Part shown: positions 6,125 through 48,543 of the stretch, piece after piece
How positions within the stretch are numbered: the first letter of the stretch is position 1
Layout of the letters: each line of letters begins with the position of its first letter
IMG/VR virus record: IMGVR_UViG_3300021255_001555
Coordinates: 6,845-70,844 of that record
DNA: 64,000 nucleotides
Reading direction: 5' to 3' (one strand)
Origin: a virus
Lineage: Duplodnaviria; Caudoviricetes
The notes under the pieces: generated by a model
What the model was told of the DNA's origin: nothing
Databases searched by the model: none
Seen by the model: only the letters and a program-made list of their open reading frames with translations
Position numbers and translations under genes: made by a program

Positions 6125-6246
6125 ATTGATATGGACCTCCTTTTAAAAAATAATACATTGTGGATGTCAGTACACTATTTGTGTGATATAATAAATGTAC
6201 TAACCTCGGCTTATTAAATATGCTAACAACTTGTTATCATGTATAT

Positions 6247-6275
6247 AAGATAACACAGTGTTATTATATTTGCAA
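6247..6275 (-). promoter_or_regulatory. sigma-A-type promoter of the SSB/replication operon with a palindromic operator
   Basis: TTGCAA-17-TATCTT; perfect palindrome ATAACAC-A-GTGTTAT at 6250-6264 between the -35 and -10; related palindrome at 6223-6237. Confidence 0.7.
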
Positions 6276-6309
6276 ACATTAATTCAACTTTTTTAGGAAG
6301 GTGATTTTT

Positions 6310-6615
6310 ATGGGCAACAACATTGCTCAATTAAGAGAGAAACGACAAGTATCACTACGTGAAGTAAGCGATGAAACAGGTATTGCTTACCCTACCATCT
6401 GTCGTATTGAACAAGGTCGTGATCCAATGTGGTCAACCATCGTAAAACTAGCTGACTACTTTAACGTATCCGCTGATTATCTTATGGGTAGAGATTCTAC
6501 CAAGGTAATCATGGAAAGAGGTGAATTTACCTCTGAAGAAATTGAACTTGCCTGTAGGCTTATCCGAGAGATTCGTAAGGGAGTCCAAGATACTCCGCAA
6601 ACAAACGAGGGCTAA
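6310..6615 (+). CDS. XRE-family HTH regulator (repressor 1)
   Basis: IAQLREKRQVSLREVSDETGIAYPTICRIEQG...LADYFNVSADYLMGR. Confidence 0.9.
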   Translation: MGNNIAQLREKRQVSLREVSDETGIAYPTICRIEQGRDPMWSTIVKLADYFNVSADYLMGRDSTKVIMERGEFTSEEIELACRLIREIRKGVQDTPQTNEG

Positions 6616-6745
6616 TGAAGTAACTCCATCGCTTGTTATGTTTTATCGCAGTCCCAAACGGGAAAGCCTTGTTTCTCAATCCTGCTCTAACGAACTCCTT
6701 GCTCTTACCCATGAGTTCTGCTGCTTTCTCGATTGTTATAACCAT
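6560..6745 (-). CDS. small HTH DNA-binding protein (excisionase/Cro-like)
   Basis: ITIEKAAELMGKSKEFVRAGL...FPFG...YFISP; has an RBS and its own promoter; located next to the integrase. Confidence 0.7.
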   Translation of the reverse strand: MVITIEKAAELMGKSKEFVRAGLRNKAFPFGTAIKHNKRWSYFISPRLFAEYLGLPYESLG

Positions 6746-6798
6746 TCTTAACACCTCTTTTCCACACCAAATGTGTTTAAAACCAACTTACAGTGCTT

Positions 6799-6828
6799 AT
6801 GATAACACAAGCTGTGTTTTCGTGTCAA
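6799..6828 (-). promoter_or_regulatory. sigma-A-type promoter for the Xis/Cro-like gene
   Basis: TTGACA-18-TATCAT with TGTGT before the -10. Confidence 0.7.
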
Positions 6829-6876
6829 CACTATTTGTGTGATTTTTTTGACTTTTTATTTTTTGGAGGGATTGAT

Positions 6877-26133: not shown

Positions 26134-26532
26134 TCACTTCCTTTTGTACGCCACCTTAAAGAATGGTTGCCACCATTGTCTATGGTAGATCGTACTGTAT
26201 GAATTTGTATATCCATCTACAATCTGTGTTGACAGTAATCGACCATTGCCAACGTAGATACCAAAATGTATTTCACGGTTAATCAGGAAGATACAAATGT
26301 CACCATAGGTCATGTCATTGGGGTCTCGTGTTTTGTTAAAGTTTGCACCGAACCACCGTACAATCCTGCGTGGAGCATCTTTCATCCAATTCTCATCAAT
26401 GGGAAGTCCATCGTCTATCTTGATCCAACCATGCTCACGATAGAAAAGCCTTACAAGACCAAGGCAATCTACGCCTTCAAATGTATCTCCATTAAATTTA
26501 TATGGTATTCCTATGTATTTATCTGTATCCAT
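26134..26532 (-). CDS. NlpC/P60 tail assembly protein (gpK-like)
   Basis: YIGIPYKFNG...GVDCLGLV...HFGIYVGNG. Confidence 0.88.
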   Translation of the reverse strand: MDTDKYIGIPYKFNGDTFEGVDCLGLVRLFYREHGWIKIDDGLPIDENWMKDAPRRIVRWFGANFNKTRDPNDMTYGDICIFLINREIHFGIYVGNGRLLSTQIVDGYTNSYSTIYHRQWWQPFFKVAYKRK

Positions 26533-26549
26533 AACTTTTCTCCAAAAGA

Positions 26550-26580
26550 AAAAAGAGAGGAATCATGTCCTCTCTTTTAA
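26550..26580 (-). terminator. intrinsic terminator after HU
   Basis: AAAAGAGAGGA...TCCTCTCTTTT hairpin with T tracts on both strands. Confidence 0.7.
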
Positions 26581-26849
26581 CGTACAATATCTTTCAATGC
26601 CTTCGCAGCTTTAAACACTGGAGCATCATAGCCAGCAATCTGAATAGCCTCGCCAGTCATTGGGTTTACTCCCGGTCTACCTGCACGGTGCTTTACCTTG
26701 AAAGTACCAAAGCCAACCAGTCGAATGTAACCGCTGTATTCAAGTTCATGCGTTGCTACTTCCTTGAAAGCATTGATTACCTTTGCGGTATCCTTCTGGG
26801 TTACACCAGATGCCTTTGAGATTGCCTTGACTAATTCCTTCTGATTCAT
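26577..26849 (-). CDS. hup: HU-family DNA-binding protein
   Basis: MNQKELVKAI...LVGFGTFKV..RAGRPGVNPMTGEAIQI....PVFKAAKALKD. Confidence 0.95.
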   Translation of the reverse strand: MNQKELVKAISKASGVTQKDTAKVINAFKEVATHELEYSGYIRLVGFGTFKVKHRAGRPGVNPMTGEAIQIAGYDAPVFKAAKALKDIVR

Positions 26850-26878
26850 AGAAAATCCTCCTTAAAAATAATGTAATG

Positions 26879-27472
26879 ATAATAACCATTAAACCTAGCA
26901 TACCAAGAGCCTTCGCTCTACTTTGCTTTCAAGCCTAATTGTTCGACCACAGAGATGACAAGTCTGAGCAGTAGGGAGCTACCCTAATGCTTCTTGCCAC
27001 GGTCTAGCTCTGAGAAGACTGGTTACTTCCAACGTTCACCCGACATTCAGAATTATGTTTTGGTTACATATATTTTCATAATGTCTTCTTGTTAAACCTT
27101 GTGGTAATTGGGCTACTTGTACGACACTGCTCTCTTATAGGAACGTTACTTCCATCACCACAAATCCCCTTGGGTGGTATTCCCTTGTATTTTTTCTACG
27201 TTTACCAGACGCAGATACAAGGGTTATTCTCCACAGGAGCGTCTATTGCAAGGACGAGAGGGTGTCTGTCTTACCAGACCATTAGCATTGCATTGGTTCC
27301 AGTGGTTGAACCTCGTTCTCCCCCGATAGCCTTACGGTTATCAGGAAGGGTATCACAGGGGCGTATCCGCCAATCCAACTAACAAGTGAATCCTCTATTA
27401 GAAACCAATCCTGCAAACGGAATCACCGCCTTATGCAGCAGGTTTTGCTATGCTAGGTTTAATGGTTATTAT
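26879..27472 (-). ncRNA. large structured ncRNA, candidate ROOL (or GOLLD-related)
   Basis: Perfect 24-bp terminal inverted repeat; many internal hairpins; no credible ORF; adjacent to tRNA genes; strand inferred from context. Confidence 0.7.
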
Positions 27473-27525
27473 TCATCTTCTTCATTATCAAGATTCGTAC
27501 ACTTAATCACTCCTAAAGTTATATT

Positions 27526-27595
27526 TGACAATGACAGGACTCGAACCTGTATCTCCCTGTCAAGACCGTTGTTTTCTCCATTAAACTACATTGTC
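27526..27595 (-). pseudogene. tRNA-like element with a collapsed anticodon arm
   Basis: Perfect GACAATG/CATTGTC acceptor stem, D arm, ACAGG-TTCGAGT-CCTGT T arm; anticodon arm unpaired and 2-3 nt short. Confidence 0.7.
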
Positions 27596-27863
27596 ATATC
27601 AGGGCGACTTGTTTTACATCCTATCGCCATCAGATGAGTTACCTACTTATATACACCTGTAACCATTGGTGTAATGTTATAGACGTTTGTTGTCTACCTA
27701 GCCTCTCAGGTGTCTCTAGTTCCATCCACGGAACTTCAGGCATACCCAACTCAACACCATCTTGGGATTTAGGATTCGGTGTCTGGGGTTCCCATGGTAA
27801 CTTTGCCAGACAAAGATGTTTAGTGAGCCAGTGGTAGGAGTGGTCCCCTACAGTTTGGCATAT

Positions 27864-27939
27864 TGGAAGCAGAGGGTGGAATCGAACCACCGATGTTGAG
27901 CTTATGAGGCTCATAGCTTAACCACTAGCTTACTCTGCT
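27864..27939 (-). tRNA. tRNA with CAT anticodon (elongator Met, or lysidine Ile2)
   Basis: AGCAGAG/CTCTGCT acceptor; TGAGC-CTCATAA-GCTCA anticodon arm; GGTGG-TTCGATT-CCACC T arm; encoded CCA; lacks initiator features. Confidence 0.95.
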
Positions 27940-28109
27940 ATCAAGAAGGGCTCCATGGGAATCTATGAAAGGATGATGACTCTCACAAAGGGGTAAAGTG
28001 AAGTACATCTGTTGGAGCCCATAAGGTTTACCTTGCTGCCTATGGCGAGGAGGTGGGAACCATAGTACAACAAGCCTACTGTCTACAATAATAAACAATG
28101 TATACATTA

Positions 28110-28460
28110 GTGTTTATTGTAATAAACATTATGTAATACATTGTATTCTATGGATTACTATGAGTTACTATAAGTATCTATAAATTATAAGCTATAAGAT
28201 ACTATGTTATACTATAGTAAGCTATAGAATACAATGTAGAACTAAGTGTTACTAAGAAGCTATCTATTCCTTGATTAAATCATATCCTCCGAAGGAGGAT
28301 AACTGCGAAGCAGTTTAAGGAACGATAGTGACCTATGTTATTCTATGTTACTCTATGATAATCATAAGTATCTATGAAATACTATGATATAAAACCATAA
28401 GAAAACATAGGATACTATATGATATCTATAGAATATCTATAGAATACATAGTAATTCTGG
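28110..28460. repeat. AT-rich low-complexity CTAT-repeat block containing a conserved hairpin element
   Basis: More than 15 CTAT words; ATCCTCC-GAA-GGAGGAT hairpin; counterpart at 48040-48340. Confidence 0.7.
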
Positions 28461-28629
28461 ACATACTTCGACACCCCACTTACTTCTTTCTTCTTTTTTA
28501 GTATGACTAGGTACACTCGCATCCTTGGCAGGGACAGTGCGTAGTTGCTGTTACCAGTTTTCCCATGTTGTCATACTTGGAAAAGAAGATACTAGCGAAG
28601 TGCAAGAAAGAAGAAAAAATTCCTTTCAT

Positions 28630-28662
28630 ATATAATGTCGCCAAAGTGTCTAAAATATTCCA
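28630..28662 (-). promoter_or_regulatory. putative phage late promoter, copy 1
   Basis: TGGAATATTTT-N12-GACATTATAT; also at 44337 and 48511. Confidence 0.6.
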
Positions 28663-28680
28663 AGAATTTTCTGTACTTAT

Positions 28681-28709
28681 ATGATAACACCTTGTTATTA
28701 TATTTGCAA
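28681..28709 (-). promoter_or_regulatory. sigma-A-type promoter with operator, upstream of the tRNA/ncRNA/HU island
   Basis: TTGCAA-17-TATCAT; near-palindrome ATAACAC-C-TTGTTAT; almost identical to the 6247-6275 promoter. Confidence 0.65.
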
Positions 28710-28848
28710 TACCCTTATTTTAACAATAGAAAGGGTACGAGATATTCTCTCATACCCTTGTATTGCCAAAATATGACATAGATAAAATTGAACAGGTATA
28801 AACTATCCAGTGTTCTTCTTCGTATGTCGTAGAAGGGCAAGGGAAGGC

Positions 28849-31800
28849 TTATCTGAACCCCATATTTCGTTGCTGACCCATGATTGCCTGTACGGCTCGT
28901 GGGTTTTCTTGTAATGCACGGAGAACATCAGCAGACGATGCTTGAGTATTGAGGACAATCATCTTTCCATTGCCACCATCAGTACCCATGTTTTTCAACA
29001 TTTCATTCTGCTGTGCCATCTTCTTGTTCTGCTCACGAAGAAGATACTCTGTCATCTTATTGCTACCATAGATATTAGTAGTACGCTGTGCTACCTGTGG
29101 ATTAATCGTAGGGACGTATGGAGTTGGATTGGTTATTGATGTATCCAATGGACCGCCAGTGGCATAACCATTGAGTTTATCGAGTGTATCGTAACCAAGA
29201 GCTTTCGCAGACTTCTCATTGATTACGTACTCACCATTAGACAACCATACGAACTTATCTTTGTTCCGCAGATAAGTAAGGATAGAATCACTGCGACCAG
29301 TACCAGCACCCTTAACTCTCCCTGAAGGAGCACCGCCATCAGCGAACTTCGGTATAGAACCACCATTGGCAAATATAGGTAACGCTGCTACAGCAGATGT
29401 AAAGCTAGGCATACCAATGGAAGCCGTTGCTGATACTGCACTGCCACCACCAAAGAGACCACCAAGAAGATCACCTGCGAATCCAAGGAGTCCTCCACTA
29501 CTTCCACCGCCACCTAACAACTGACCAGCGAATCCAAGTACCTGTGACAAGAAATTATTACTGTCATTCAAGAGACCACTGTTTTGTGATACCTTGTTTG
29601 TCAAGTTGTTTTCGCTGTTAGTGTTGTACTGGGTGATACTATTGGAAGTCTTTAGGACACGGTTTAAGTCAAACATGGTTTTATCCATTTTAAACATGGA
29701 GTCCATGTTGCCCTGTATAGCCTTAGTGATTGGTACGGAACTATCATATGTCTTTGTCAATCCAAGGTTTTCACTGAATGACTTAGACATATCATAGCTA
29801 CCATAACCAAACGTGCGACCAGTGCTGAGTACACTGAGTATCTGAGCAAGATAATTGTTGGTAGTGTTTATCTTGGTATCAATGCTACCAGTATACTGCT
29901 GTATCTGTGACCACTGAGTTTCAGACTGCTTCTCTGCGTCTTTCTTGTTTAAATCACCGAACCCAAGGAGCTGAGCAAAGAATGATGGATTGTCAGTCTT
30001 ACCGGTCAGCAATAAATCCCACGCGTTTCTACCAAGGTCAACCCAGAGATTACGGAGCATTTCACCGAAGTCCTTGCCATCAAAGATTAACTCCTGAACT
30101 AGCTTATTGTATCCTTCGCGGATGGTACGGATATGCTTTGTTGAAGCATCGCGTATCTCTTTGTTTACAGATACGAGTTCCTCTTTGATAGCATTGTGCT
30201 TCTCAATGTACTTAGGGTCAGTTCTATCGAGTTCTGCGAGTTCCTTTGATAATGCCTTGCGTTTCGTGAGAAGGTCAGCGTAAGCATCGGTAGCTCGTTT
30301 CTGTCCCCATGCGTCTTCAGTGTTGTCTACACCGTAATCACGCATCTTAGCATTGTGGTCAATGATTTTCATTGCATCATTGTACTGTGCTTCAATGAGT
30401 TTAACCTGTGCATCCACAGCCGCCTTGGAAGCAGTAAGGTATTTATCCTGCCAATCACGGAACGCTTCGGTATTCTCATGTTCCTTTGTGGTCTCATCTT
30501 CCATAAACTTGCTATACTCAGCTAAAGCAGCAGTAGTCTTTGCTACCTCTGCTCTTGCTTTGTCAGACTCAGTAGCACCATTGCCCAGTGCAAAGAGTTC
30601 TTTGTTACTCTTACGCTCGGCATTTTTTTGTGCCTGAGATACAGCCTTATCAGCACTGGAGAACCATTCGTCAGCAGCTTTTTCACGAAGGTCTGCAATC
30701 TTATCCTTAGCTTCCTTGAGTAACTTCACGGATTCAAGGAGCTTCTCTTTGACAGCCTGTAAAAACTTCTGACGATCATCGGACTTATTGGACTCATCTT
30801 CCATAGCATTAGAGATAAGGTCAATCTGACCACTGATACCAGCGTTGTCCCATTCGTCCTGCGTTACACGATGGGTTTCACCGTTAATCGTGGAACTAAG
30901 GAAATCGGCAAGTTTATCATTGAAAGCCACAGCAACTTCACGAGCACCAGACTGGATAATCTTTGTAGGCACCTGTCCACCCATCTGACGATAATCGCTA
31001 CCATGGACTACGCCGCCAGCACCACCGTTAGCACTGGAGCTATTGCCAACATAGCCACCCTGACCGTCATACATTACTACGTGGTCGTTATCACCGTATA
31101 CAATGATATCTCCCGGTTTAAGCTGACTGGAATCAAATGGAATAACCTTGTCACCTGCATCGGATACCAGTCGAGGAACATTAACTACGCCATCTGCAAA
31201 TTCCTGTGATAAGAACTGGTTCTGCATTGCATTACCAATTTTAACTACGGCTTCAACACAGGCTTCTGTACCATTAGCCAAGGTCTGACCAAGGAATCCT
31301 TCGACAGCCGCATTGATTTCTTCAACGGAAGTCTCAGCACCAGACATCTTGATTACATTGGTATCAAAGAGCTGACTATTGACTTCATTGATATGAGATT
31401 CAGTCTTACCTTGTTCAACCTGCATATCGGCTATAGCTTTCTTATACAAGTCATTGCGTTTCTTTGCACTGTCTAAGGTAGTACCTTGATTCTTCTCAAT
31501 GCGATTCAATGATTTTAACTGGTCATTTAGCTTTGACTCAATGTTCTTCATGCGGTTAGAAATGGAGATAACAACTGGATCCTTTTCCTTTTGCTTTTGA
31601 ACACGCGGTTCACGGGAAGACTTGGATTTTTCTTCTGAAGGTTGTACTATGTCACCACCGCCAGCAGAGGTGCGAACACCGCCATTACCGTCAAGCTGTT
31701 TAAGAGTTTCAATATTATTTTTAATTTCATCCATCTGACCCTTAAAGTGAGCATCCTGCATATTCATCATGGTGTCTTTTTGATACTGGTCCTCATTGTA

Positions 31801-33219
31801 TATCTTGTCGTTTAAGACATCCATGCGAGCTTTGGCTTCTTTTAACTGACGTTCTTCAAAGGCGGTTCTATTTTCCTTCTGTTCAAGCTCCCACACTTTA
31901 TCATTGAGATTATCATACTCATGTTGATAAGCATTTTCGTTGATACGCGACCACCATAACTGAACTTTTCCTAACGCAATAGTTGCACTTTCGAGGGCAG
32001 ATAAAGCATCAATTTTCTTTTCAATATTTTCAACAAATTCCTGTCTGTCCCTCTGATATTCTTCTATCATTGTCGCAGTATCAGCTTTGAGTTGTTTTGT
32101 ATATTCTTCAATAGCCTGTTTTTCGTTTTCAGCAGCAGTTATTTTTTGCTCAGTTGTTTTGTGGAACACCTGATATTCTTCTTCTGCTGCCGCAGCTACG
32201 TCTTGGCTATTTTTGATACGTTCAATAGCTCCTTGATTTAACTGTGCAGATAGCTTTTTCTCGGTTTCTTCAATATCTTTACTGAGATTAGCTTGTTTTT
32301 CAGCAGTAAGAGTTTCATCTTTCTGGGCTTGCATAAGAGCTACATAAGAGCTAGTCAGAGCATGAACGAATTCATCCTGTTCTTTGTAGATTTCTATAGC
32401 GGCAGACTGTTGCTCAAGTTCTAATACCTTTTGGTTACCAAATTGCTGTGCCGCAGATGTAGCCTCAAAATAAGATGCTGTTAATTCTGCTAAAGCAACT
32501 ATAGCAATACCGACAACGCTTTCGATTAACAATGTCTTAGCAGAAATATCTAATTTTCTCAGCTCTACATTTAATCTATTTACACCGACAGCACCGCCTT
32601 CTCCAGCGGCTCCAACAGCACCTTCGGCAACGGCGAGTCCAGTCATTCCGCCTGTCGCCATTGTTGCGTTACGTCCAGCTTGTCTTTCTGCTGTTGAGAG
32701 AATACGCTGACCATCTGCACTATATATAGCAACTGAACCAGTACGTTCTTCTGCCATAGCTAAAGAGTTAACTTCGCTTGCAGATGTAGCCGCCGCAACA
32801 CCTATAGCTTCTTCTGATGCAACTGTAGAAGCCATAGCTTCGTTGAATGACATACGGTAAGATTGGATAACATTGGAAATATATTTCCATACTTTATGAA
32901 CGCCCCATAAAGCACCTGCAAATTCTAATGTAGTGGATATGACTTTCCACGTTGTAGAATCCAAATTATTTAACCATGTTAATAATCCGTTTCCTAGTTC
33001 AAGGAAGTTTTTAATAAACTCGGATATGCCACCGCTACCACCGTTTGCAATAATACCAGTAATATTATCTTTGAAAGATTGCCATTTTCTAGCTACAGTA
33101 TCTAACTGCTCGGCAACCTGTTCGTTTGTAAATCCCTGAGAATTAATTGCTAATTCCCAGTTGTTAATGATTTCCTTATAATCTGACAGCATAGCTGCCA
33201 CCTTTGCCCACTGGAACTT
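28849..33219 (-). CDS. tape measure protein, exon 2 (contains an NlpC/P60-like peptidoglycan hydrolase domain)
   Basis: In frame with exon 1 after intron removal (SGG|KFQW); helical repeats; EACVEAV...GDIIVYGDNDHVVMY. Confidence 0.9.
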   Translation of the reverse strand, partial: KFQWAKVAAMLSDYKEIINNWELAINSQGFTNEQVAEQLDTVARKWQSFKDNITGIIANGGSGGISEFIKNFLELGNGLLTWLNNLDSTTWKVISTTLEFAGALWGVHKVWKYISNVIQSYRMSFNEAMASTVASEEAIGVAAATSASEVNSLAMAEERTGSVAIYSADGQRILSTAERQAGRNATMATGGMTGLAVAEGAVGAAGEGGAVGVNRLNVELRKLDISAKTLLIESVVGIAIVALAELTASYFEATSAAQQFGNQKVLELEQQSAAIEIYKEQDEFVHALTSSYVALMQAQKDETLTAEKQANLSKDIEETEKKLSAQLNQGAIERIKNSQDVAAAAEEEYQVFHKTTEQKITAAENEKQAIEEYTKQLKADTATMIEEYQRDRQEFVENIEKKIDALSALESATIALGKVQLWWSRINENAYQHEYDNLNDKVWELEQKENRTAFEERQLKEAKARMDVLNDKIYNEDQYQKDTMMNMQDAHFKGQMDEIKNNIETLKQLDGNGGVRTSAGGGDIVQPSEEKSKSSREPRVQKQKEKDPVVISISNRMKNIESKLNDQLKSLNRIEKNQGTTLDSAKKRNDLYKKAIADMQVEQGKTESHINEVNSQLFDTNVIKMSGAETSVEEINAAVEGFLGQTLANGTEACVEAVVKIGNAMQNQFLSQEFADGVVNVPRLVSDAGDKVIPFDSSQLKPGDIIVYGDNDHVVMYDGQGGYVGNSSSANGGAGGVVHGSDYRQMGGQVPTKIIQSGAREVAVAFNDKLADFLSSTINGETHRVTQDEWDNAGISGQIDLISNAMEDESNKSDDRQKFLQAVKEKLLESVKLLKEAKDKIADLREKAADEWFSSADKAVSQAQKNAERKSNKELFALGNGATESDKARAEVAKTTAALAEYSKFMEDETTKEHENTEAFRDWQDKYLTASKAAVDAQVKLIEAQYNDAMKIIDHNAKMRDYGVDNTEDAWGQKRATDAYADLLTKRKALSKELAELDRTDPKYIEKHNAIKEELVSVNKEIRDASTKHIRTIREGYNKLVQELIFDGKDFGEMLRNLWVDLGRNAWDLLLTGKTDNPSFFAQLLGFGDLNKKDAEKQSETQWSQIQQYTGSIDTKINTTNNYLAQILSVLSTGRTFGYGSYDMSKSFSENLGLTKTYDSSVPITKAIQGNMDSMFKMDKTMFDLNRVLKTSNSITQYNTNSENNLTNKVSQNSGLLNDSNNFLSQVLGFAGQLLGGGGSSGGLLGFAGDLLGGLFGGGSAVSATASIGMPSFTSAVAALPIFANGGSIPKFADGGAPSGRVKGAGTGRSDSILTYLRNKDKFVWLSNGEYVINEKSAKALGYDTLDKLNGYATGGPLDTSITNPTPYVPTINPQVAQRTTNIYGSNKMTEYLLREQNKKMAQQNEMLKNMGTDGGNGKMIVLNTQASSADVLRALQENPRAVQAIMGQQRNMGFR

Positions 33220-33718
33220 CAATTATCTGTTATCCGTTTTATTATAAAATAAAACGAGACAGGTCATTTCTGCCTGTCTCTCACATTTTATTTAATTAGG
33301 CTATTTTGTGAGTTCGGACTGTACATTCACTCTTTTACCATGTGGCAGTCAGAGGGCTATTTGCAGTCTCTAGGGTTTCACATCTCGTCTTCTTTTTTTA
33401 ATCTCCATACAGCTATTTTATAACACGCGAAGAATCCACCAGTACATATAAGCCACTGAGCGAATATTGAATATTGCTTATCAAGTAACGCTCCTATGGC
33501 ACATAGCGTGTATACTGCATAGAGGAAGCCAGTGACGATACAGGCTTGTTTTAGTCCGATTAAAAAGTTAATGACACCGAATATAATTGCAAATAAGAAG
33601 AAGAACATAACAAACCCTCCTTTGTGTTTTACCACGGTCTTGTCCTGCCTATAGGATTTTAACCGTTATTAAAGCGTTCTAGTAATGTATTTCTACATCA
33701 CGCGGCAAGTTTACGTCT
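33220..33718 (-). mobile_element. group I self-splicing intron (499 nt) in the tape measure gene
   Basis: 5' exon ends in U and intron ends in G; P1, P10 and P4 pairings; R element CTAGAGACT; S element ATGTACAGTCC; P9 hairpin; splicing restores the frame. Confidence 0.93.
33378..33608 (-). CDS. intron-encoded 76-aa membrane protein
   Basis: AGGAGG RBS then ATG 33608; 2-3 hydrophobic helices and a charged tail; lies in the P6 loop. Confidence 0.75.
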   Translation of the reverse strand: MFFFLFAIIFGVINFLIGLKQACIVTGFLYAVYTLCAIGALLDKQYSIFAQWLICTGGFFACYKIAVWRLKKEDEM

Positions 33719-36700
33719 ACCGCCAGAAATTGCGAGCAAAGTTTTTTGGATATCGTTGTTTGTATACTTGGTTTGGATTGCTATATCAAGGATTACCTGT
33801 TGTATATCACGGAATCTTTCAACGCCATCCTCGCCAACTTCTTTAACTTTTATACCAATCTTATCTAACTCTTTAACTGCTTTATCACTTCTAATAGATG
33901 CAATAAATGTTTTCAACATTGTACCAATAGCCGAGCCTGATAAAGCTGTAGAACGCGTTGCTTGTGCTATCAATGCGTTTAAGAATTCAAAACTCATACC
34001 TGCTTGGTGTGCTACAGAACCGCTTCGTTCAACTGCGGCTGCAAGGTCCTGTGCAGTTACACCTGCATTATGTGATAACTTGGTATAAACATCAATGATA
34101 CGATTAGAATAAGCTAATGCTTCAGCAGTGGAATGTGCTTGCATACCAAACTGGAACATAGCTGCCTCAACAGCTTTCGTAGATTCTTCCATCGAGAAGT
34201 TATCTGCCACTGCGAGTTTTGCGGATTGAGCTGTAAGTAAGTTTACAGTTTCTCTTTCCTTATACATACGTCCCCAGAGTCTTGCGGATTCAATAATATC
34301 ACTATTGGATACACCGTACTTGGCTCCAATGTTAATCATCCGTCTCTGTTGGTCTTCGTAGGTAGCTTTTTGCATTTCCTTATCTATAGAGCGATTATTC
34401 ATAAGGGCTTCTATAGGGTCAATACTTAACGGTTCTCCAAGGCTAGGCATTACAGTTCTCAGATTAGCCATATTTTCTTCAAACTCTTTAATAGCTTCGC
34501 CAGCCCTACCTAAGAAGTCGTATGTTTCATAGAATCCGAAGGCTCCACCTATCCAACGAAGTTTATGTTCCCAACCTTTTGTAAGGTTATCAGGGTTAAG
34601 CAACTTCATTTTACGGTTAATTATATCGGCTTCCCTTTGAGCCTTCCTTAATTCAACCTCGGTTTCTTTGATATATTTTTTTATACCAACATTACCGGGG
34701 TTTCTTCTAATTAAACTATAAGCTCTCTCTAAAGAACCTGTCAAGGCATTAACTTTTTCATTTGCAGTAGAAAAATATTGATCCTTCCAAGCATCGAGAT
34801 TACGCATACTATTTCTGGTGTTTATCTCTTTGGCACTCATACCAGCAAACGGGATAATCTGTAGTTTTTCCTTTTCCCCTCCGAGTTCCTCATACTCTCT
34901 CTTGAGCTTTTCAAGTTTAGCTACAGAGTTATCAACGTATTTCTGAGTGACCATTTCTCCACGCTCAAGCAATGCGTTTTGTCTTGCGATTTCCTCATTG
35001 TACTGTCCTTGTATAGTAAGGAGTCGCTGAGTGTGGTCGTTAGCCTTAGTGTTCTCAGGGATAAGTTCATTGAGTCTGTTACGATTACCTACGTTCCACT
35101 GACGATAATACCCAAGTGCATTAGGGTTTACACCGTACATAGCAAGAGCTTTGAACGTATCGGCTTCCTCATAGTCATTCTTAAGAGCCTGTCTGTCACT
35201 TGGTTTTGTCTGTGACTCAACGGCAAGCTGATAATCTTTCTTGAGTTGGTTCAGTTTACCAAGGAGTTTATTAACAGCTTCTTGCTGTTTATCAAGTTCT
35301 TTTGTAGCTTGTTTTTCAGCAGCTATAATTTCATTCCAAGCATCTTTGTGGTCTTTAGTGTTATTTTTAATACGTATCTGCTCATCATTGTACCACTTAT
35401 CGGCAAGACTTACATTGTTCTTATTCTGATTTCCAAGGTCCTTCTGGAGTTTAGCCTCGTCTTTTTCTTTCTGTTTATTTTGAATCCTAGATAAAGCAAA
35501 ACGAACTTTGGTTTCATACTCAAGAACTCTCTGACGTACCTTGGCTTCGTCATTGCTTTCCATGATAAGCCGTGCCTGATTAATGATTCTACGACGATTA
35601 GCAACTTTCTCAGCAGAAGCAATCTCGGCTTTTTCGCGTTCAGCAAGGTCAAGCTGATATTGCTTTGCTACGGTAAGGTTATTCTTTGCGGCAGTGGCAT
35701 TACGTTCAAGGTTCATGTTTCTGAACTGTAGTTTTTGTAATTGCTCCTCAGTGCCGTTCCATTGTCCGTCATTATAAGCCTCAAGCAAACTACGAATACG
35801 CTGACGTTGCTTAGAAATTTTCTCTGGTTTTCCGCTCCACACTGCATCGTATTCTTCGTTCCAGTTCAGTGGTTTCTTCTGTTTTCCTCCACCGCCACCT
35901 TTTGCAGTGACCTGACCTTCGATTTTAATGGTCTTCGTTGGGAGTCCATTGATTAACCTATGGGCTTCTTCGACAGCAGTTTTTAAACCACTAATATCAC
36001 CTTCGATTTTAATGGTCTTCGGTTTGAGTTCGTCGCTCTTACCGTTCTTACGATAGTCAAGCATTTTTGACATATCGGCAAATGGTCTTACTGCGTCTAC
36101 TACTTTATCAAAGTTCTTTCCTTTGATACCAAGTTTATCAATGGCATTATTATTGATAGCATTGATAAGCTGACCAAAAGCATGATTACCCTTGAAGTGC
36201 CTTGCAAGAGCACTCATCTTACCTTCGATATCAGTTGCCTTATTATATTCTTCAAAGAAAGCCTTGTAATCCTTGGTATAACTAGGAATTTTAAATGTAT
36301 CACCCTTGGCAAATTCAGCGAACTTCTTACTGGATTTCATTGCTGATTGTGCTGCATTGACATAGTTCTTCCAAAGAGACCTATAGCTATCGCCCTTGGT
36401 TCCAGACTCTAAACCAATGTCAACAGTAACTTTTCTGTCGAGCTTCTTGAGTTGACTTAGAGAATTATTGATAGTCTTAACAAGACCAGTATTATTACCA
36501 TTAATTTCTACTGTCTTATTACCAAGACCATTGATTAAAGTATGGGTCTGCTCCAGTAATACATTGAGTGCGGCAACGCTTGTGACAGCTTTACTCTTTG
36601 TAGGGTCACTGTCAAACATTTCTGACGTAGCTTTCTTTACCTTTTCCCCTTCGGCTGCAAGACTACCCAGTGAGGTCTTAATGCTTTCTGCAACTTTTTC

Positions 36701-36883
36701 AAGGCGTGATATTTGCTTGAAATCAATATCAAATGATAAAGGCTTGTTCTTTTTACCTTCGGCATTAATTGCATTACGTAACTGAGTAACCCTTGTTATG
36801 GCTTGTGCAAGGTCTTTAAAGTTCTTCGCAATAGTACCAGCGTTGGAAGCAATGTTTAAATCTATACGAGGTTTTTGTGCCAT
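33719..36883 (-). CDS. tape measure protein, exon 1
   Basis: TMP core (AQSAKLAVADN, AAVERSGSVA, IGTMLKT); coiled-coil; follows the tail chaperones. Confidence 0.92.
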
Positions 36884-44336: not shown

Positions 44337-44369
44337 ATATAATGTCAAAAATGTGGGAAAAATATTCCA
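44337..44369 (-). promoter_or_regulatory. putative phage late promoter, copy 2
   Basis: TGGAATATTTT-N12-GACATTATAT just upstream of portal. Confidence 0.6.
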
Positions 44370-48039: not shown

Positions 48040-48340
48040 TCTCCTTTCTATAGTATTACAATGTATTTCTATGGTTTCCCTTAGTTCCTTCTATAGTATT
48101 ACTATGTATATCCTTAGTTCCTCTATAGTGTTCCTATGGTTGAGCCATGGATACTATACTCTTTGAACTTGCTTCGCAAGTTATCCTCCTTCGGAGGATA
48201 TAGTTTAATCATGGGAAGGTTTAGTTCTTTATAGTTCCTATGTTTTTAGCTATAGAATTTTCTATAGTTTAAACATAGAGTTCCATAGTATTACAATGTA
48301 TAACAATGTATTACTATAGAATAACTAAGTAATAACTAAA
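48040..48340. repeat. second AT-rich CTAT-repeat block
   Basis: Repeated CTATAG/CTATG words; contains the inverted copy of the 28267-28312 element. Confidence 0.7.
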
Positions 48341-48510: not shown

Positions 48511-48543
48511 ATATAATGTCAAAAATCCCGGAAAAATATTCCA
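48511..48543 (-). promoter_or_regulatory. putative phage late promoter, copy 3
   Basis: TGGAATATTTT-N12-GACATTATAT upstream of the terS operon. Confidence 0.6.

Follow-up and report, generated by a model that had tools for sequence, protein, structure and literature searches.

The 594-nt element at 26879-27472, read on the minus strand, is very probably the gene for a ROOL RNA (Rumen-Originating, Ornate, Large; Rfam RF03087) of an uncultured tailed phage. The window, which is the whole 64,000-nt stretch of DNA analyzed here, comprises bases 6845-70844 of a linear IMG/VR virus record of 70.8 kb with a CheckV completeness of 94%. When the Rfam 15 covariance models were scanned over the whole window, three matches exceeded the gathering score, two of them to tRNA and one to ROOL, and a rerun with permissive filters gave the same ROOL match. 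The match (27466..26888, minus strand) scored 310.4 bits with an E value of 1.7e-70, three times the gathering score of 99.1 bits for RF03087. It spans model positions 1-574 of 574 and is not truncated. The ROOL scores in 58 of 97 other viral records probed ranged from 245 to 406 bits, which places the phage ROOL in the middle of the family spread. By the same covariance model there is a single copy of ROOL in the full 70,844-bp record. An earlier sequence-only reading had guessed that the element belonged to the ROOL class and had proposed that it be compared with the Rfam ROOL and GOLLD models using Infernal. The full-length match to the one and the lack of a match to the other bore this guess out; no GOLLD match was found at the gathering threshold in the whole window or at E ≤ 1 in 26500-29000.

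The ROOL family has been in print since 2017 and its structure was solved in 2025, and the element is a further member of this described family. ROOL was reported by Weinberg et al. 2017 (PMC5737381) and by Cousin et al. 2017; it averages 581 nt and is found near tRNAs and in prophages (PMC5737381). Cryo-EM structures were presented by Kretsch et al. 2025 (PMC12286853), and those from the Su laboratory are reviewed in PMC12990946. The background given in the sequence-only reading (about 600 nt, associated with phages and the rumen, near tRNAs, of unknown function) agrees with PMC5737381 and PMC12286853. The element at 594 nt is ROOL-sized, about 580 nt being expected, and its minus strand has a predicted minimum free energy (MFE) of -200.1 kcal/mol (z = -6.3 against dinucleotide shuffles). 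Every ROOL-defining feature that could be tested is present in it. The coordinates of the element and of the features around it are collected in Table 1.

Table 1 Features of the ROOL locus and related sites in the window. Positions are those of the window.
Feature	Position	Strand	Remarks
ROOL RNA gene	26879..27472	-	Supported by RF03087 match, MFE z score and covariation; bounded by the outermost P1 pairs
P1, 5' arm	27445..27472	-	24 perfect pairs, 28 with one mismatch
P1, 3' arm	26879..26906	-	Carries sigma-70-like hexamers TTGGTA-16-TATTAT facing HU (consensus match only)
Conserved core, CAAUAGACGC to AGUAGCC	27111..27248	-	Includes the long hairpin 27182-27223
Variable A/U-rich linker	27053..27110	-	58 nt, between AGUAGCC and UUCUGAAUG
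HU-family DNA-binding protein, 90 aa	26577-26849	-	PF00216, 8e-28; phrog_379
Terminator-like hairpin	26551..26578	-	Directly after HU
tRNA-like shell	27526-27595	-	Rfam tRNA, 50.7 bits; 53 nt upstream of ROOL
tRNA-Met (CAU)	27864-27939	-	Rfam and ARAGORN; 391 nt upstream of ROOL
Bipartite motif TGGAATATTTT-N12-GACATTATAT	28630-28662	-	1.16 kb upstream of ROOL
Bipartite motif copy before portal gene	44337-44369	-	
Bipartite motif copy before terS	48511-48543	-	
Two overlapping sigma-70-like matches	28681..28726	-	10/12 and 9/12, the second with TG; consensus matches only
Terminator-like hairpin	28731..28759	-	Closes the tape-measure gene
Tape-measure protein, two large ORFs	33698-36883, 28849-33222	-	About 475 nt apart

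A protein-coding reading of the element was considered and dropped. The only minus-strand ORF of at least 50 aa that overlaps the element is one of 51 aa (26746-26901), which covers the HU start and touches only the 3' arm of the closing stem P1. On the plus strand, the ORFs at 27089-27382 (97 aa) and 27386-27637 (83 aa) matched no Pfam family, and a further one of 51 aa is nested inside the element at 27174-27329. The listing of ORFs and the Pfam scan of the two larger ones are in line with the earlier statement that the interior holds no credible ORF.

The internal architecture of the element is that of a ROOL. The sequence motifs of the family are all present in consensus order, namely CAATAGACGC, AGTAGCC, TTCTGAATG, GGTGAA, CTCAGAC, the GGATAC loop and the GCGAAGGC hairpin. 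At the RNA level, the known ROOLs and this one have in common CAAUAGACGC, AGUAGCC, CUGAA-N5-GGUGAA, CUCAGAC, the GGAUAC loop, and the GNRA and GAAG hairpins. In addition to this full architecture in order and to its length (594 nt against an average of 581), the element resembles known ROOLs in its variable linker, its long closing stem, its location in a phage and its co-oriented tRNA. In the solved structures, the loop that corresponds to the linker at 27053-27110 is disordered and faces the cage interior (PMC12286853). The span from AGUAGCC to CUGAA, which is comparable to this linker, measures 37-87 nt in 55 validated ROOLs. The internal helices named in the sequence-only reading were all located at the places it gave: CCCTTGTAT (27182-27190) pairs with ATACAAGGG (27215-27223), a hairpin GGGAGCTACCC occupies 26974-26984, a hairpin GAGC-CTTC-GCTC occupies 26907-26918, and CC-GTAA-GG sits within a longer stem. 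The UAGCU loop within 26974-26984 includes the self-complementary AGCU.

Covariation was examined in a plain MAFFT alignment of 22 validated ROOLs, the phage one included, which was built so as to be independent of the Rfam seed alignment and folded with RNAalifold. The consensus comprises 82 pairs in 16 helices, and double compensatory changes are found in 76 of the 82. Standard pairs fill 93.2% of the cells, as compared with 64.4 ± 0.8% in 500 shuffles, none of which reached the observed paired fraction. When the 3' partners were slid by 1-3 columns, the paired cells fell to 36-44%. The covariation score is 0.80, against 0.11-0.16 in the controls. As the structure was predicted on the very alignment that was tested, these values are somewhat favorable to the structure, yet the margin is very large. 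The absence of covariation had been named beforehand as an observation that would speak against a structured RNA, and the opposite was observed. The phage ROOL itself forms 66 of the 82 pairs in the MAFFT alignment. Much of the shortfall of 16 pairs looks like local misalignment by MAFFT, because the covariance-model alignment pairs several of the missed helices correctly. In the latter, counting along the NC and CS lines by hand gives about 140 of about 160 Rfam consensus pairs as formed and about 20 as not formed. About half of those not formed belong to a sub-hairpin that has been lost in part, the first of the 5' multi-stem domain; this partial loss is one respect in which the element is unlike a typical ROOL, and another is a closing stem at the long end of the range (24 pairs against a median of 16).

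The phage that carries this ROOL has no cultured close relative. Its TerL is at most 38% identical to that of any cultured phage, the best being phages of Bacillus, Faecalibacterium and Enterocloster; a Firmicutes host is suggested rather than shown. Lambda-like tail genes flank ROOL on both sides and all of the nearby genes are on the minus strand. A 1.37-kb non-coding island follows the tape-measure gene, with ROOL at its end. Downstream of ROOL, the order is HU, an NlpC/P60 tail protein, an ORF with weak resemblance to DUF2460 and minor-tail proteins (both matches sub-threshold), a tail assembly protein and a J-like central fiber. The portal and large terminase genes lie farther upstream. 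In the gap of about 475 nt between the two tape-measure ORFs, the Rfam scan at gathering threshold gave no match to an intron family. The 268-nt spacer at 27596-27863 was tried as a second non-coding RNA and rejected: it had no Rfam match at E ≤ 1 and no homolog in 96 validated ROOL loci, and its fold (z = -0.54) lends the idea no support.

The bipartite motif TGGAATATTTT-N12-GACATTATAT occurs exactly three times in the window, each time on the minus strand and as an exact match; the number expected by chance is zero. Its spacing is not that of sigma-70 promoters, and it has the look of a late promoter specific to the phage. With one copy before terS, one before the portal gene and one upstream of ROOL, the simplest reading of these predicted signals is that ROOL heads a third late operon. 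The terminator-like hairpin after HU may or may not halt transcription before the tail-tip genes. The same island holds two arrays of the pentamer YATAG at 28148-28441 on the minus strand, with eight copies each phased at 10-11 bp, which flank a perfect hairpin TATCCTCC-TTCG-GGAGGATA. There is a CTAT-rich twin of this block at 48040-48340, downstream of the late motif of terS, in which the hairpin element is inverted (28254-28304 against 48179-48229, 80%). The helical phasing of YATAG suggests a protein-binding array, which could be a set of iterons, a centromere-like site or a regulatory site.

Other ROOL loci were surveyed in two samples. A search of the viral collection with the pattern CAATAGACGC-N(105-135)-AGTAGCC gave 97 loci. 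Alignment, confirmed by the covariance model and nhmmer, identified 39 of the 97 as chance matches, which were discarded; a ROOL is present at the pattern site in 57, as to which the covariance model and the nhmmer profile agree. Together with the phage one, the 57 validated viral loci fall into 28 clusters when grouped at ≥ 90% identity and into 14 lineages when grouped at ≥ 70%. The second and independent sample consisted of 39 validated ROOLs in bacterial genomes, mostly of gut and rumen Firmicutes. The combined survey thus covers 96 other validated ROOL loci, with 23 lineages in all. No full-length close relative of the phage ROOL was found in the viral or metagenome collections. L002 and L146 are short contigs; the latter, from a metagenome and 86% identical, covers only the last 30 nt of ROOL.

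tRNAs on the strand of ROOL are its sole general neighbors across the 96 other loci. In the viral sample, a tRNA lies within 1 kb upstream of ROOL in 16 of 25 clusters and within 1 kb downstream in 16 of 23, and every one of the 214 tRNAs within 2.5 kb has the orientation of ROOL. In nine of the 90% clusters, 1-20 nt separate ROOL from the end of the nearest tRNA upstream. In the bacterial sample, 23 of 39 ROOLs have a tRNA within 1 kb, and 82 of 82 tRNAs are co-oriented. This universal co-orientation supports the idea of co-transcription put forward by Weinberg et al. (PMC5737381). Taken as a whole, the arrangement suggests that tRNA processing may set the ends of ROOL. One large clade, made up of viral contigs and of Clostridia/Oscillospiraceae genomes (L014, L046, L051, L056, L064, L082 and relatives; L116, L119, L120, L142), has the order HU, tRNA-Met or tRNA-Val, tRNA-Thr, ROOL, tRNA-Ala, tRNA-Ile and others, and its tRNA-Thr ends 1-8 nt before ROOL.

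In the phage, the strand of ROOL, which had been left open earlier, is minus, and HU is therefore downstream and the tRNA elements are upstream. The element had been placed between tRNA genes and HU; this is correct for HU, and what lies upstream proved to be one true tRNA and one tRNA-like shell. RNase P and RNase Z read the acceptor and T arms of tRNAs, and the shell has a perfect 7-bp acceptor stem as well as a D arm and a T arm. ARAGORN finds nothing there at default and draws it only at -ps80. Since its anticodon arm is broken, with G.A and G.G mismatches and a 6-nt loop, the shell cannot decode. It may be a tRNA that has decayed, or its acceptor-T half alone may have been kept as a processing signal.

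The HU gene is a companion of ROOL that is recurrent but restricted to certain lineages. HU on the same strand within 1 kb of ROOL is found in 10 of the 28 viral clusters and not once in 230 kb of farther flank. These ten clusters amount to three lineages, which are the large clade above, L079 and the phage studied here, and the identity of HU among the three is 27-40%. The association has p = 3e-8 if counted by cluster (10/28), but p = 0.004 if counted by viral lineage (3/14). In the bacterial sample, the link is seen in one of 17 lineages (p = 0.29), and this is the same large clade. The order in that clade, with HU first and ROOL after tRNA-Thr, is the reverse of that in the phage, where ROOL precedes HU. 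HU as a general partner of ROOL is out, as it accompanies 3 of 23 lineages and is absent among the recurrent neighbor families. No paper that names ROOL along with 'histone-like' was found in the literature searched.

The position of HU raises the question of whether the fold acts in cis, that is, as a leader that stabilizes or regulates the mRNA of HU and of the downstream tail-tip and lysis genes with no free particle being formed. HU starts 29 nt past P1 with a strong ribosome-binding site (AAGGAGG), and the promoter-like hexamers in the 3' arm of P1, about 30 nt before its start codon, face HU and may double as its promoter. The order of ROOL and then HU is kept in the nearest relative, L146, which starts inside the ROOL 3' arm and continues with HU and then tail genes, and the confinement of HU to the first kilobase around ROOL in 3 of 23 lineages points the same way. 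We nevertheless regard a cis-acting leader as quite improbable. No downstream gene family recurs among the other lineages: the 117 neighboring ORFs in 22 of them represent 70 Pfam families, none of which is found in more than three ORFs. This is a useful negative from the survey, as it indicates that ROOL has no general protein-coding neighbor besides the co-oriented tRNAs. HU lies upstream and not downstream of ROOL in the large HU-linked clade. Finally, members of the family assemble as free RNA-only particles, and one ROOL RNA is as abundant as 16S rRNA (PMC12286853).

The closing stem P1 could also be taken for the ends of a MITE or its remnant, with 24-bp terminal inverted repeats that merely mimic an RNA stem. 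As had been reported, ATAATAACCATTAAACCTAGCATA (26879-26902) returns at 27449-27472 as its exact reverse complement; once one mismatch is included, the inverted repeat is 28 nt long at 96% complementarity (26879-26906 and 27445-27472, 538 nt apart). The perfection of these repeats and their A/T-rich ends are what one might see in such an element. However, the 24-mer is confined to the two arms within the window even if 3 mismatches are allowed (none expected in 100 shuffles), and the element is present once in the 70.8-kb genome. No direct duplication is visible in the flanking sequence (...TGTAATG | element | TCATCTT...). Neither of the observations named earlier as favoring a MITE, dispersed copies and a target-site duplication, was made, and the interior matches the ROOL model along its whole length. 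Moreover, a long closing stem is a trait of the family: among representatives, one per cluster, the number of uninterrupted pairs has a median of 16 and spans 11-33. With its 24 pairs, the phage ROOL is itself among the six of 24 such representatives that have at least 24. The sequences of the P1 arms are unrelated from lineage to lineage, the terminal helix being kept elsewhere by compensatory changes and not by sequence identity, and 17 of 17 P1 pairs covary in the family alignment. That the arms differ so between lineages argues for P1 as genuine RNA structure and against a transposon end, and we consider a MITE extremely improbable. In L146, the 3' arm of P1 is identical at 24 of 24 positions.

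The fallback of the earlier reading, a new giant RNA class or else a GOLLD that merely resembles ROOL, could draw on the nearly nil sequence similarity to the 57 other viral ROOLs, with which only the motif cores align, but it is unsupported because the ROOL model matched in full at three times its threshold, all ROOL motifs are present in order, GOLLD has no match at E ≤ 1 and low identity between members is usual for ROOL (PMC12191101), so that we give it next to no chance.

Given a ROOL RNA, we propose the following for its making and form. To judge from the promoter-like motifs, its transcription would probably fall in the late phase of infection, with ROOL forming the leader of the third late operon. 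The precursor might then be cut by RNase P and RNase Z at the tRNA and the shell, and possibly by RNase III at P1, which would free ROOL; we put the chances of this step at about even. The RNA is likely to fold into a flat monomer that assembles into a protein-free, closed dihedral cage, a hexamer or an octamer, with the linker pointing inward. Since the whole consensus scaffold and the 58-nt linker are kept, the cage behavior of the solved members is to be expected here by analogy. ROOLs from three sources have been seen by cryo-EM to form flat monomers that build protein-free closed dihedral cages (PMC12286853, PMC12990946). Two of the sources gave octamers and that from L. salivarius gave a hexamer (PMC12286853, PMC12990946, PMC12191101). 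Kissing loops and A-minor contacts join the chains, and the resulting cages, in whose interior the variable linker is disordered, remain stable at about 10 nM (PMC12286853, PMC12990946, PMC12191101). The solved ROOLs share less than 50% sequence similarity, low identity being normal for the family (PMC12191101).

As to its role, co-oriented tRNAs are the only general neighbors of ROOL, and our best guess is thus a function tied to the supply of phage tRNA and translation late in infection, for example that of a scaffold, a store or a decoy; we favor this over the regulation of a neighboring gene. An unlikely variant is that, in this phage lineage, the late ROOL particle is coupled to HU, which it may bind, be chaperoned by or enclose, or else that the cage is produced along with virion parts because it works in assembly or lysis or travels with the virion. 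In either case the shell would be purely a processing signal. If true, this variant would tell for the first time when ROOL is made and how it is processed, and would supply a candidate protein partner.

Three known systems may be compared with ROOL as found here. GOLLD is likewise a large ornate RNA of phages and prophages that is found by tRNAs, forms RNA-only cages and increases in expression during phage lysis (PMC12286853). It differs in its length of 700-830 nt and in having separate 5' and 3' domains, and its model has no match in the window.

The second is the pRNA of phage phi29, which is far smaller and whose ring on the portal is part of the DNA packaging motor. To our knowledge, no protein partner or virion role has been described for ROOL. 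The likeness is that both are phage-encoded and form symmetric homo-oligomers, and that both would belong to the late, virion-building phase; there is no similarity in sequence or structure. The pRNA ring is covered in PMC12990946.

The third comparison is with rRNA operons, in which long terminal stems are cut by RNase III and embedded tRNAs by RNase P and RNase Z. The phage locus similarly has a large RNA within a duplex of 24-28 bp and tRNA-shaped flankers on one predicted transcript. The difference is that P1 belongs to the mature particle in the solved ROOL structures.

ROOL is among the very few natural RNAs known to build closed, protein-free cages larger than a ribosome. One more ROOL leaves the question of purpose unchanged; what this one offers is an unusually readable local context in a nearly complete genome. 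The context opens three questions in one system, which are whether ROOL is a late transcript, whether it is excised by tRNA enzymes and whether it contacts HU.

The location of ROOL in its genome varies. In the phage it sits inside the tail module behind a late-operon motif with HU next, whereas in the Streptococcus prophages PH15, Javan246 and Javan207 it is at the extreme end, 1-2 kb or less from the edge of the record. Positions at record ends were also seen in the small viral records G043 (71-640), G027 (36048-36618 of 37143), G034 (21-586) and G030 (21-587). Such a position is the usual slot of prophage cargo beside the attachment site, in contrast to the mid-tail-module ROOL of the phage. 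In locus L089, ARAGORN called a tmRNA 823-1245 nt downstream of ROOL within a tRNA array. The record of locus L070, a jumbo phage (G068, 402,311 bp, 100% complete), carries two ROOLs at 209967-210580 and 6246-6837, which score 328 and 313 bits.
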